49,311 nucleotides of DNA from Candidatus Bathyarchaeia archaeon (GTDB taxonomy: Archaea > Thermoproteota > Bathyarchaeia > Bathyarchaeales > Bathycorpusculaceae), in NCBI GenBank assembly GCA_038883855.1, contig JAVZLH010000007.1, forward strand, positions 1 through 49,311. Direction: 5' to 3'. The position numbers were made by a program, and so were the translations under genes. The number at the start of each line of letters is the position of its first letter. The stretch's first letter is position 1. The notes under the pieces are model-generated. The model had not been told where the DNA came from. It saw only the letters and a list, made by a program, of their open reading frames with translations, and made no database searches. This document shows positions 12,012 to 48,603 of the stretch, one piece after another.

Positions 12012-12922
12012 GTTAGGATTGTGCATCCGTTTTCGGTTACTAAAATCGTGTGTTCTACTTGGGCTACGGGTTTTCTGCTTACTTCGACGAAAACTGGATA
12101 ACCCATTATAGCCCTTGAGGATAAAAGTTCTTTGAGGGCTTCTTGACGCTGCTGTTTTGGCATTATGTTTGTTAGCCAACGCTCAGTAAAGGGCAACGTC
12201 TTAAAGTTTTTTTCTATATATTTTAAAAGCTGTTTTGCATACGGGTTTTTAGCAGGTTTAGATTTGAGACAACGGAAGATTGTGACTTCCGCGCCATCTT
12301 CAACCCTACCCACTGCTTCTGGGAGAGTTACGAATGGTTCGATGGCGTATACTTCGCCGAGTTTGATTTTGGATAGGGATATTTGTGAAACGTTTGGTAT
12401 GGATGTGCCAGCATGCACGAGATATCGCCCAACTTGGTGGCCAGTCAGGTTAGAGATTGGCTTGAAGCCTCTAGATTTTATTGTTTTTTCTATTAAGGCG
12501 CCTATTTTTGAAGTGGAAACATTTGGGCGAATGTTTTCTATAGCTGTTTTCAGGGCTTTTTCGGCTGTTTCTACTAGGCTTTCATATTCTGAGTTGAAGC
12601 TAATTGTTATGGCTGTGTCTGTAACGTAGCCGTCTACGTGAGCGCCTATGTCAACTTTCACTATGGAGTTTTCTGGTATTCTCCTACTATCGTTTGGCGT
12701 TGAAGTGTAATGTGCTGCAACCTCGTTTATTGAGACATTGCATGGGAATGCTGGTTTTCCTCCTTTTTCGCGGATTAACTCCTCGGCTCTTTCGCAGACT
12801 TCTAATATTGGCATACCTTCTTTGACGAAATGTTTTATTTCTTCACGTGTTTCTCGCAGGATTTTTCCAGAAAGCCTAAACTTTTCAATTGCCTCCGCAT
12901 CGTAATTACTCATTAGTTTCAC
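12008..12922 (-). CDS. map: Methionine aminopeptidase type II
   Basis: AFPCN...AAHY, DIGAHVDG...DTA, NLTGH, AIEPF and EHT motifs. Confidence 0.96.
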   Translation of the reverse strand: MKLMSNYDAEAIEKFRLSGKILRETREEIKHFVKEGMPILEVCERAEELIREKGGKPAFPCNVSINEVAAHYTSTPNDSRRIPENSIVKVDIGAHVDGYVTDTAITISFNSEYESLVETAEKALKTAIENIRPNVSTSKIGALIEKTIKSRGFKPISNLTGHQVGRYLVHAGTSIPNVSQISLSKIKLGEVYAIEPFVTLPEAVGRVEDGAEVTIFRCLKSKPAKNPYAKQLLKYIEKNFKTLPFTERWLTNIMPKQQRQEALKELLSSRAIMGYPVFVEVSRKPVAQVEHTILVTENGCTILT

Positions 12923-21317: not shown

Positions 21318-21422
21318 AAGTAATATAAAGCAACAGTCAACTGTAAAAGTTAGTGGTGTTGAGAGCAATTCTCTCATCACACAATTGAAACTAACCAGTA
21401 TAACAGTAGGAGGTGCACGCTT

Positions 21423-22565
21423 ACGGGTTCATCACAAGCGTTTACCGTAAAGTATGTCATACACGCAAAATTCGAAATAGAAGGAGTAGTTGAAAAACCA
21501 GACGTTATAGGAGCAGTCTTCGGACAAACAGAAGGACTTTTCGGCCCAGAACTCGATCTAAGAGAACTGCAAAAATCTGGAAGAATCGGAAGAATAGAAA
21601 TCGAACTTCACTCAAAAAACGACAGAACAACAGGCACAATAACAATTCCAACAAGCATGGACAGGGTCTCCACAGCATTAATCGCAGCAAGCATAGAAAG
21701 CATAAACCGAGTTGGACCATGCGCCGCGAAAGTGACCCTAGAAAAAATTGAGGATGTAAGGGAAGCCAGAAGAAAAGCAATAATTGATAGAGCCAAGGAG
21801 ATTCTGCACAAGTGGACAATTGAGGCAATGCCATCCGTTGACGAGGTCTTCAGAGAAGTCGCGGAAACCCTCAAAGTAGCAAAAGTTGAAAAATACGGGC
21901 CGGAAGAGTTGTCTGCGGGACCAGAAGTCGACAGTTCAAAGGAAATCATAATAGTTGAGGGAAGAGCAGACGTAATAAATCTCATGCGGTGCGGGCTGCT
22001 AAATGTAATAGCTATGGAAGGAGCTAAGGTTCCGGAAACAATAAAAAGACTTTGCAAAGAGAAGGAGGCAACAGCTTTCCTCGACGGCGACAGAGGCGGA
22101 GACCTAATCCTGAAAGAACTTTTGCAAGTTACGAATGTAAAGTATGTTGCAAGGGCGCCAAGGGGAAGCGAAGTTGAAGACTTAAATTGCAAGGAAATTT
22201 TTGAATCCCTCGCAGCAAAGGTTCCAGTTGAAGAACTGTTTAAGCCAAAAAGGGAAAAGCCCAAACTGGAATTTCCAAAAGAGGTTGTTCAAACAGTAAA
22301 GGAACTTGAGGGAACATTAGAGGCTGTTCTTCTGAACGATAAGTTAGAGCGGATAGAGCGACTGCCTGTAAGTCAACTAGCCGAGAAACTTCAGCAAGTG
22401 GAGGATGTTGACACGGTTATTTTTGATGGTATAATAACGCAGAGAATTGTTGACATAGCAAGCGAGAAAAACATAAAGACAATCATTGCATCTCGCATTT
22501 CAGAAGCTGTAAAATCGCCATTAAACGTTCAACTGATAACGTTCTCAGAGGTCGCTGAAAGCTAA
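21423..22565 (+). CDS. dnaG: Archaeal DnaG (primase/exosome subunit); apparent ACG start
   Basis: VEGRADV and DGDRGG motifs. The conserved N-domain (VVEKPDVIGAVFGQTEGL...LRELQKSGRIGRI) lies in frame upstream of the ORF-track ATG at 21657; SD GGAGGTG at 21409-21415. Confidence 0.93.
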   Translation, partial: TGSSQAFTVKYVIHAKFEIEGVVEKPDVIGAVFGQTEGLFGPELDLRELQKSGRIGRIEIELHSKNDRTTGTITIPTSMDRVSTALIAASIESINRVGPCAAKVTLEKIEDVREARRKAIIDRAKEILHKWTIEAMPSVDEVFREVAETLKVAKVEKYGPEELSAGPEVDSSKEIIIVEGRADVINLMRCGLLNVIAMEGAKVPETIKRLCKEKEATAFLDGDRGGDLILKELLQVTNVKYVARAPRGSEVEDLNCKEIFESLAAKVPVEELFKPKREKPKLEFPKEVVQTVKELEGTLEAVLLNDKLERIERLPVSQLAEKLQQVEDVDTVIFDGIITQRIVDIASEKNIKTIIASRISEAVKSPLNVQLITFSEVAES

Positions 22566-39464: not shown

Positions 39465-39549
39465 CGCCGGGAGTGGGATTTGAACCCACGCGACCCCGAA
39501 GGGCCACAGGCTCTCAAGGCCTGCGCGTTATCCACTCCGCCATCCCGGC
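39465..39549 (-). tRNA. tRNA-Ser(TGA)
   Basis: Acceptor GCCGGGA/TCCCGGC, anticodon arm CAGGC-CT-TGA-GA-GCCTG, long variable arm, G discriminator. Confidence 0.96.
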
Positions 39550-40300: not shown

Positions 40301-40617
40301 GGGCTGGCGTGTTGGCTGTAACCCGCCTTTTGTTCTATGTGGCATTTGGCTAATCGGGCTACCCGCGCCTCGGGTAGATTCCTCACAGGCGTCTGTTTGC
40401 CCTTTCCACTTGCAGGACGGCCGTTTCACCGTTTCGCATCCAGCATTCTCGACAACTTAGCATGCCTCATTGGCAATTGCTGGATGGACGTTTCGTTTCT
40501 GTTCCGTTGCCAAGGCTCTCGCCTTACGTCCTTGCGGACGTTGCAATTCTACATGTGGGCGGAGTTTCCTCAAGCCTCTCATGGAGGCTCGAAAGCCACA
40601 CGCCAACTCGCCAGCCC
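40301..40617 (-). ncRNA. rnpB: RNase P RNA
   Basis: Minus strand has GAGGAAACTCC and AACAAAAGGCGGGTTAC (P4) with terminal P1 GGGCTGGCG/CGCCAGCCC. Confidence 0.93.
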
Positions 40618-47652: not shown

Positions 47653-48279
47653 TTACCTTTTTACTGCGATTAGCCTCCAAAGGCTTGCCAAAAATCTTCT
47701 GATGTCTATCAGGAATGACGCCGAGAAAAGCACTAGAAACAGAATGTGCGGTGGCACTAATGCTAGTGGGACATCCATTGGAAATGCCAAAAAGGTGGGT
47801 AAAAGCACAGTGCATATAGGTATTGAGAGAAGTAAATTTGAATTGTTGGGTTGAAGTAAAATTTGTAAGTCCTTGCTCCTTATGAGAACAATTGCCGCAG
47901 TTAGGAATAAAATCCATTCGAAAATTATGTTTGTGAAGCTTTTAATGCTGATTTCGATACCATAAAGTTGTGATGTAAGCGGCCAAAAAAGCTGTGTTCT
48001 CCCGCCTGCAATAAAATCGCTAATCAAAGAATGTTGAATATAAGCTACGAAATATGGAAGAGCGTTTTTGCTCCATATTGCAAATAACGGTATAAAAATT
48101 ATAGTCGCCGCAATAATTGAGTGGGTGGGTCCACGATGTTCTAAAGGCGTGATTAATATGTCAATGTCCGGAAGGACGGAAAGCGTAAAAACTAGTGGAA
48201 TATTTAATTTTGTTTTCGTAAATTTTGCAGTTAGCTTGCCGAATATGTACCCGAGGGCAAAGTGTCCAACTGCAAACGA
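47653..48279 (-). CDS. YdjM-like membrane metal-dependent hydrolase; apparent TCG start
   Basis: The frame stays open 84 codons upstream of the ORF-track start: (S)FAVGHFALGY...LPDID...HRGPTHS...QHSLISD...LFWP; GGAGG 8 nt before the TCG. Confidence 0.85.
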   Translation of the reverse strand, partial: SFAVGHFALGYIFGKLTAKFTKTKLNIPLVFTLSVLPDIDILITPLEHRGPTHSIIAATIIFIPLFAIWSKNALPYFVAYIQHSLISDFIAGGRTQLFWPLTSQLYGIEISIKSFTNIIFEWILFLTAAIVLIRSKDLQILLQPNNSNLLLSIPICTVLLPTFLAFPMDVPLALVPPHILFLVLFSASFLIDIRRFLASLWRLIAVKR

Positions 48280-48603
48280 TTTGTTCTCCTCCCTTTTTCG
48301 CTTAATGACACCAGCTGGGTTAATAAGTTTATAGTGTCATTTGAAGTGTTTAGCAGCCGCCAGACTTCTGCTGGACAGAATAGCTGCCAACACCGTCAAA
48401 ATATTCATAAACAGATTTTGCTAGTTTAGTTCTGGCCTTTTTCTTCGTTTTCCTCTCCACTTTGCTTATTATTTTTGTTGTTTTGTGGACGATTCATGAG
48501 GAGTTAGAGTGTGTATGGAAAGTTTTGTGTTGTGTATTTGTGTTGATAAAGTCTACAACAATGTTTATTAAGACGCACGATTTACGATTAAGGTGGTGAG
48601 AAA

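Follow-up and report, generated by a model that had tools for sequence, protein, structure and literature searches.

A conserved weak start codon is known from bacterial infC (IF3), which begins with AUU, and UCG is absent from the start codons of NCBI translation table 11. The locus described in this study, a TCG codon at the start-codon position of a YdjM-family hydrolase gene in an archaeon of the Bathyarchaeia, is comparable with infC in that a non-canonical codon stands at a start defined by a Shine-Dalgarno (SD) site, is conserved among relatives, and presumably persists because it sets or regulates expression. Nevertheless, the AUU of infC is one base from AUG whereas the UCG found here is two, and infC belongs to a bacterial host, whereas the present gene belongs to an archaeon with eukaryotic-type initiation factors. 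In plant organelles, C-to-U editing of ACG creates start codons, and the likeness to the present case lies in genomic NCG codons where relatives have NTG; here, however, no cis motif is shared, and ATT, ATC and CTG starts are also present in the clade. In mRNAs of eukaryotes and viruses, ACG is described as a near-cognate start codon (PMC4705826). Those starts show the same single middle-base mismatch as the ACG codons of dnaG, hflX, SRP19 and an HMG-CoA synthase gene (HMGCS) in the genome studied here, but here essential genes would have no start other than ACG, which is retained in over 30 genera, whereas the known ACG cases give minor isoforms or background expression. No precedent for a TCG start was found in the literature.

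The window, meaning the whole stretch of 49,311 nucleotides that was analysed, is contig C7 of a metagenome-assembled genome (MAG) of 1.11 Mb in 24 contigs, with 85% completeness and 42.6% G+C. The public runs in which the sequence occurs are hot-spring metagenomes from three studies, and runs X7 and X8, which are labelled metatranscriptomic, are represented by contigs of relatives that are about 93-94% similar. As a separate observation, the window carries an archaeal RNase P RNA (Rfam RF00373, 196 bits; 40307-40611, minus strand) adjoining tRNA-Ser(UGA) (39465-39549, minus strand). The contig depth at the RNase P RNA in two metatranscriptomic-labelled runs was 378-991, as against about 0-20 in bins outside the RNA-gene cluster, and because depth rises at this cluster, these runs do contain RNA.

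The ydjM gene and its reading frame

The YdjM-family membrane hydrolase gene occupies 47653-48279 of the minus strand, with 208 codons and a TAA stop when counted from TCG. Upstream, the frame is closed by an in-frame TGA (48337-48339, minus strand) 19 codons 5' of TCG, after which the translation reads HYKLINPAGVIKRKREENK-S-FAVGH, and the predicted YdjM-like N-terminal peptide after the start residue (M or S) is FAVGHFALGYIFGK. The first canonical in-frame start is TTG at codon 85 (48025-48027, minus strand), which lies 3' of the conserved, presumably metal-binding motifs. In the table of open reading frames, the frame is entered from TTG 48027 only, giving 124 amino acids, and codons 1-84 are without ATG, GTG or TTG, while H6, LPDID, HRGPTHS and the H of IQHS in the translation are all 5' of this TTG. 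The sequence-only reading had described exactly such a gene, a YdjM-like hydrolase with no canonical start before TTG 48027 and with its motifs 5' of it, and the translation, the reading-frame table and the family profile all agree with that description.

The Pfam YdjM profile (PF04307) was matched by residues 4-141 at profile positions 4-146 of 176 (E = 3.4e-13), and the score of 49.9 bits, compared with a cut-off of 29, places the protein in the YdjM family. Ten residues (H5, D37, D39, H47, R48, H52, S53, H82, D87 and E120) were invariant in 15 aligned YdjM orthologues, and we take the invariant histidine and aspartate residues to be metal-binding. In comparison with this family of inner-membrane metal-dependent hydrolase-like proteins, the H, PDxD, HRGxTHS and H pattern is the same and the protein is ordinary, its start codon being the sole oddity here. 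The dN/dS ratio was 0.167 against the same-genus orthologue, and synonymous sites were saturated against other genera (pS 0.74-0.80), so that the conservation of TCG is not due to recent ancestry. With 208 open codons, this low ratio and a frame that is intact in 12 genomes, the gene does not look like a pseudogene and, judged from codon substitution, is functional and under purifying selection.

TCG and the Shine-Dalgarno site of ydjM

On the minus strand, GGGAGG (48293-48288) is followed by AGAACAAA (48287-48280), TCG (48279-48277) and then TTT GCA GTT GGA CAC. This is the string that had been claimed for the locus, although it extends over 48293-48262, so that the lower bound of 48270 first given for it was too short. 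The TCG at the start-codon position (48277-48279, minus strand) was compared among 29 orthologous ydjM loci, 17 from 40 close relatives and 12 from a 120-genome sample of the class Bathyarchaeia, and the codon directly 5' of F/Y-A-V/I-G-H was scored. We observed TCG in 12 loci, TCG with an extra T in 1, ATG in 10, TTG in 3, ACG in 2 and CTG in 1, and a single-protein scan for further ydjM loci gave 2 loci. The 12 TCG loci belong to 12 genomes and 11 genera of families f1 and f3. Conservation of TCG in relatives, which had been put forward as a check, is thus borne out by 11 other genomes, with ATG or TTG at the same position in others. Since the orthologues with a canonical start have ATG (10/29) or TTG (3/29) exactly there, the codon is taken to be the start codon.

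The closest upstream stop among the ydjM relatives lies only four codons before TCG (L013), and the in-frame peptides upstream of TCG are unconserved, save for the Glu and Gly codons that the SD itself spells. The number of other serine codons at the TCG position is 0 among the 12 TCG loci, in which codon 2 is TTT (4), TTC (5), TAT (1) or TAC (2), codon 3 is GCA (6) or GCT (6), codons 4 and 5 are represented by four valine codons and four glycine codons, and codon 6 is CAC (9) or CAT (3). Moreover, TCG is the rarest TCN codon in the long open reading frames of the genome, with 706 of 4798 (15%). On these codon counts, TCG is held at the nucleotide level, beyond any amino-acid need.

The SD site GGGAGGAG (48286-48293, minus strand) has its GGAGG core at 48292-48288, 8 nt 5' of TCG, and the ydjM leader upstream of the start codon is GGGAGGAGAACAAA. 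All but one of the 12 TCG loci carry GGAGG 8 nt 5' of TCG, and the exception (L012) has GGGGG there, while an SD match of at least 5 nt was found in only 1 of the 10 ATG loci; three TTG loci have matches of 5-6 nt. The coupling of SD and TCG relative to the ATG loci gave a Fisher p of 2.9e-4, a value that overstates the support, as the genomes are kin and not independent. Within one genus, G018 has TCG with GGAGG, and G128 and G136 have ATG without an SD. The ATG starts of this genome show a peak of SD spacing at 6-10 nt, indicating that 8 nt is a working distance. By this comparison, TCG 48279-48277 is the predicted start position of ydjM, conserved and travelling with a strong SD.

Further upstream, a promoter-like BRE/TATA element, ctataaacttatta (48321-48334, minus strand), begins about 54 nt 5' of TCG, and ataaacttatta, ataagcttatta, atagatttatta and similar strings stand at an equal distance in most orthologous ydjM loci. 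Archaeal promoter geometry, which we take to assign the BRE/TATA role to ctataaacttatta, makes it a putative promoter.

Two other explanations of the TCG codon were tried and rejected. An ATG with an inserted C (ATCG) would place an A before TCG, and only eight of the 12 TCG loci have one; an out-of-frame TTG just 3' of TCG requires a TTT-G or GTT-G junction, which is absent from many orthologues. It was also observed that in one YdjM orthologue (L007, from G023) the T-run after TCG contains an additional T (TCGTTTCGCT), so that TCG and the gene are in different frames; the extra T is either an assembly error or the sign of a broken copy, and the contamination of G023 is 9%.

Other genes with non-canonical starts

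The sequence-only reading had stated that dnaG likewise carries ACG behind an SD, and this was confirmed. The start region (21409-21425, plus strand) consists of the SD GGAGGTG (21409-21415), a 7-nt spacer and ACG (21423-21425), and ATG stands at the same place in five relatives. The coding frame from ACG (21423-22565, plus strand) has 380 codons and a stop, the first canonical start lies 78 codons into the frame, and the NCBIfam DnaG profile NF003108 matches from residue 10 of the ACG-started frame. Of 30 dnaG loci, 25 carry ACG at the start position and the other 5 carry ATG there. A class-wide sample of 60 further loci, of which 51 were readable, gave ACG in 6/6 loci of family f1 and 2/2 of family f7, bringing the total to 33 dnaG loci with ACG; the remaining 43 loci, scored by eye, have ATG, TTG or GTG and, in one case, CTG. 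Additionally, in five dnaG loci (L031, L035, L036, L041 and L197) the spacer is one base shorter, and the GTG within the SD GGAGGTG of these loci shares the frame of ACG, three codons upstream of it; this GTG lacks a separate SD and was not taken as the start.

The whole MAG was scanned for frames of 100 or more open codons that lack a nearby in-frame canonical start and whose first codon follows an SD at 5-11 nt. The scan gave ACG in front of five genes of recognisable family and TCG in front of ydjM and leuA, and NCBIfam profiles begin at the codons so found. A long frame without a canonical start, preceded by ACG 6-10 nt after GGAGG, occurred four times, and the control motifs CCTCC, GCAGG, GGACG and CCACC gave 0 cases each. 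ATT, ATC and ATA after GGAGG showed no excess over the control motifs, so that every such start has to be judged by a comparison of its own. The flanks of the relatives' loci (516 kb) held no genes with NCG starts beyond the targets. Such a genome-wide scan for SD plus NCG had been suggested earlier, and its outcome is divided: ACG in dnaG, SRP19 and HMGCS and TCG in ydjM stand where homologues start, but the TCG of leuA is not a conserved start.

Of the 41 hflX loci in the order, 35 have ACG and the remaining six have ACA (2), ACC (1), ACT (1), GAC (1) and ATA (1); ATA, CTG or AGG adjoins the codon in several exceptions. In L107 a TGA lies immediately 5' of ACG, and outside the order ATG, TTG, GTG, CTG or ATC is found near the same place. 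As four of the six exceptions are other Thr codons, the hflX codon could be decoded as Thr without being the start, or another start could be in use. With regard to the surroundings of this gene, the start of hflX on contig C2 of G000 (about 72180-72260, minus strand; L020, L089) overlaps the 3' end of the upstream gene in another frame, the stop of that gene lying about 17 nt inside hflX and the SD of hflX lying within that gene. In G001, GGA replaces the in-frame TGA seven codons before ACG, and the hflX frame is open further upstream.

SRP19 has ACG in this genome alone, its relatives having ATG (27), TTG (1) and GTG (1), with both same-genus genomes among them. ACG is likewise confined to this genome in the DUF35-HMG-CoA synthase fusion, in which the relatives have ATG (26), TTG (2) and GTG (1). 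Because these two are recent T-to-C changes in genes that are expected to be important, they suggest that ACG is functional as a start in this organism. The fusion gene (L023; G000 contig C6, 39831-41336, minus strand) was also seen to begin with a region of about 140-180 residues that contains CxxC pairs and that we presume to be DUF35-like, and it has open frames of 502-541 codons in 36 matching genomes of 41 searched.

Starts other than NCG were also detected. A small gene on contig C8 has ATT in its own genome and in G001, ATG in G008, ATC in G021, ACG in G014 and ACT then ACG in G010; GGAGG or GGGAGG precedes it in five, and the ATG of G008 stands behind GGGG only. A family-2 glycosyltransferase gene has an ATT start in both genomes of the genus, and in a glutamate-synthase-like gene ATC lies 10 codons before the first 4Fe-4S domain match. 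The earlier suggestion of a shared tolerance for NCG initiation therefore holds in so far as the lineage uses NCG starts repeatedly (dnaG, hflX, SRP19 and HMGCS); it does not hold as something specific to NCG, given ATT, ATC and CTG at SD-defined starts.

The second TCG candidate, that of leuA (contig C4, 12429), was rejected, since TCG is not conserved there as a start and the upstream sequence is conserved. The codons of relatives at this position are TCG, TTG, TCT, TCC, TTT, TTC, TTA, ATT and AGT. TCG as a start consequently rests on one gene family, ydjM. The region 5' of leuA, a gene of the isopropylmalate/citramalate synthase family, is notable in its own way (G000 contig C4, about 12385-12440; L022, L057; relatives L058-L074), as it contains a TATA-like box, an SD (GAGG) and an ATG that are conserved, and from this ATG an upstream open reading frame of 6-11 codons, with the peptide M-G-[Y/C/N]-[R/C/S]-F-I and onwards to a stop, overlaps the 5' end of leuA in another frame. 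Most relatives have no canonical start near the N-terminus of the leuA frame, and this genus has TGA in comparison with a conserved TGG in relatives. The upstream reading frame could be a leader peptide, a coupling site or a frameshift site.

Among the weaker candidates, a hisZ-like gene has ACG as a candidate start, with too few orthologues for comparison. An upstream string, tatgggtt..(c)acccacaaattacccac, is common to the hisZ/hisS-like loci on G000 contig C22 (about 1620-1650; L021, L209) and to L210 (G040), and as the proteins behind it are only 54% identical, the string may be a regulatory site. The ATA (contig C12, 8013) and CTG (contig C1, 179132) candidates gave no useful family match at the N-terminus.

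Proposed decoding of the weak codons

The reading that we prefer, at a probability of about 0.58, is direct and inefficient decoding of weak codons that are positioned by a strong SD. The ydjM mRNA would probably start about 25-30 nt upstream of TCG, behind the TATA-like box; GGAGG would pair with the 16S 3' end and so place TCG, 8 nt downstream, in the P site, and initiation would proceed at low efficiency though UCG matches the initiator anticodon CAU at the third base only. The same order-level clade of Bathyarchaeia would use ACG for dnaG and hflX, and ATT, ATC or CTG for a few others, so that start-codon choice behind a strong SD appears relaxed in the clade. The weak codons appear to be kept by selection, most likely for low expression or for a tie to initiation fidelity. 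A general tolerance of weak starts is favoured because the ATT, ATC and CTG starts cannot come from C-to-U editing. That decoding is direct and without editing, which amino acid comes first and why the weak codon is kept are points that we infer.

UCG does not qualify as a near-cognate codon, as it mismatches CAU at two positions; a single base change separates it from UUG. The genome has one initiator-type tRNA gene, an ordinary one with a CAT anticodon, A1:U72 and the GGG/CCC stem. The anticodon stem-loop of this gene does not vary within the order, and relatives with a canonical dnaG start (ATG or TTG) have a gene that differs from it by one D-loop base or gap. A special initiator tRNA was rejected on these grounds, and the inspection of this gene, which had been proposed earlier as a check, brought out only this slight difference from canonical-start relatives. 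In E. coli reporters (Hecht et al., preprint 10.1101/063800), codons outside AUG, GUG, UUG, AUA, AUC, AUU and CUG, with ACG among them, initiated at only 0.1-1% of AUG. The two anticodon mismatches, together with this low efficiency, weaken direct decoding of UCG. Direct UCG initiation would itself represent something new, namely a conserved natural start codon with two mismatches to the initiator anticodon.

The same double mismatch, which makes UCG hard to decode directly, speaks for site-specific C-to-U editing of the mRNA, in which UCG would become UUG and ACG would become AUG as in plant organelles, and the ribosome would see canonical starts; on balance we regard this as rather unlikely. 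Every non-canonical start conserved over many genera has a middle C, from which one deamination gives a canonical codon, and orthologues carry the exact T forms, with TTG in L293 and L294 of ydjM and ATG in dnaG, SRP19 and HMGCS, while within one genus the hflX codon is ACA in G132 and ATA in G040. One ORF with a CDA fold was found in each of five relatives, but these deaminases are single small ORFs of 137-203 codons among the standalone ORFs examined, which we take to be of housekeeping size, and no PF00383 deaminase was found in this 85%-complete MAG. The sequences before the NCG codons share no motif between genes, and the ATT, ATC and CTG starts of the clade would need a separate explanation. 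It is accordingly improbable that this order-level clade of Bathyarchaeia creates starts by C-to-U editing, perhaps including ACA to AUA, which would be the first case of its kind in archaea; no paper on mRNA editing or on ACG or UCG starts in archaea was found in a full-text literature search.

It is very unlikely that elongator tRNAs, Ser-tRNA(CGA) and Thr-tRNA(CGU), initiate through two G-C pairs with NCG, so that the proteins begin with Ser or Thr. To our knowledge, no natural initiation by an elongator tRNA on SD-led mRNAs has been described. Both conserved codons do end in CG, a tRNA-Ser(CGA) gene is present, and four of the six hflX exceptions (ACA, ACA, ACC and ACT) keep Thr, but the ydjM and dnaG orthologues exchange the codon for ATG or TTG and not for other Ser or Thr codons, and tRNA-Ser(CGA) resembles, by eye, an ordinary elongator close to tRNA-Ser(UGA). 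An N-terminal Thr was found in one ACG culture of E. coli, according to the same preprint (10.1101/063800), which would fit initiation by Thr-tRNA. With regard to the tRNA annotation, ARAGORN calls an intron-containing tRNA 'Thr(cgt)' on G000 contig C1 (20334-20448, minus strand), but the long variable arm of this tRNA and its resemblance to tRNA-Ser(UGA) make tRNA-Ser(CGA) the likelier identity.

That the region is untranslated, either as a pseudogene or with only the C-terminal 124 residues made from TTG 48027, is highly improbable. The lack of a canonical start before codon 85 and the one-base insertion after TCG that breaks the frame in L007 would agree with it; against it, the N-terminal 84 codons hold eight of the invariant residues (H5, D37, D39, H47, R48, H52, S53 and H82) and are open in the 12 in-frame TCG loci, dN/dS is low, and conservation extends to the SD and the promoter-like box. 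Finally, the chance that a sequencing or assembly error made TCG from TTG or ATG, a caveat of the sequence-only reading to which the 24-contig MAG and the frameshifts reported elsewhere in the window might point, is practically nil, being refuted by TCG in 11 other genomes and by a contig from a different study (run X3) that spans 47966-48411 with 0 differences and 0 gaps, and because this independent contig is identical, the C at 48278 is real in the DNA.

Should TCG and ACG serve as starts here, the set of start codons on which archaeal annotation relies would be incomplete, and in a large uncultured group standard gene callers would shorten or miss genes such as dnaG, hflX and that of this hydrolase. 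A strong SD would then drive archaeal initiation, with its eukaryote-type factors, to accept a codon with one matching base, and start-codon fidelity in archaea would become directly testable. As a matter of speculation, DnaG, the GTPase HflX and a YdjM-family member together hint at a regulon that is tuned by the stringency of initiation.
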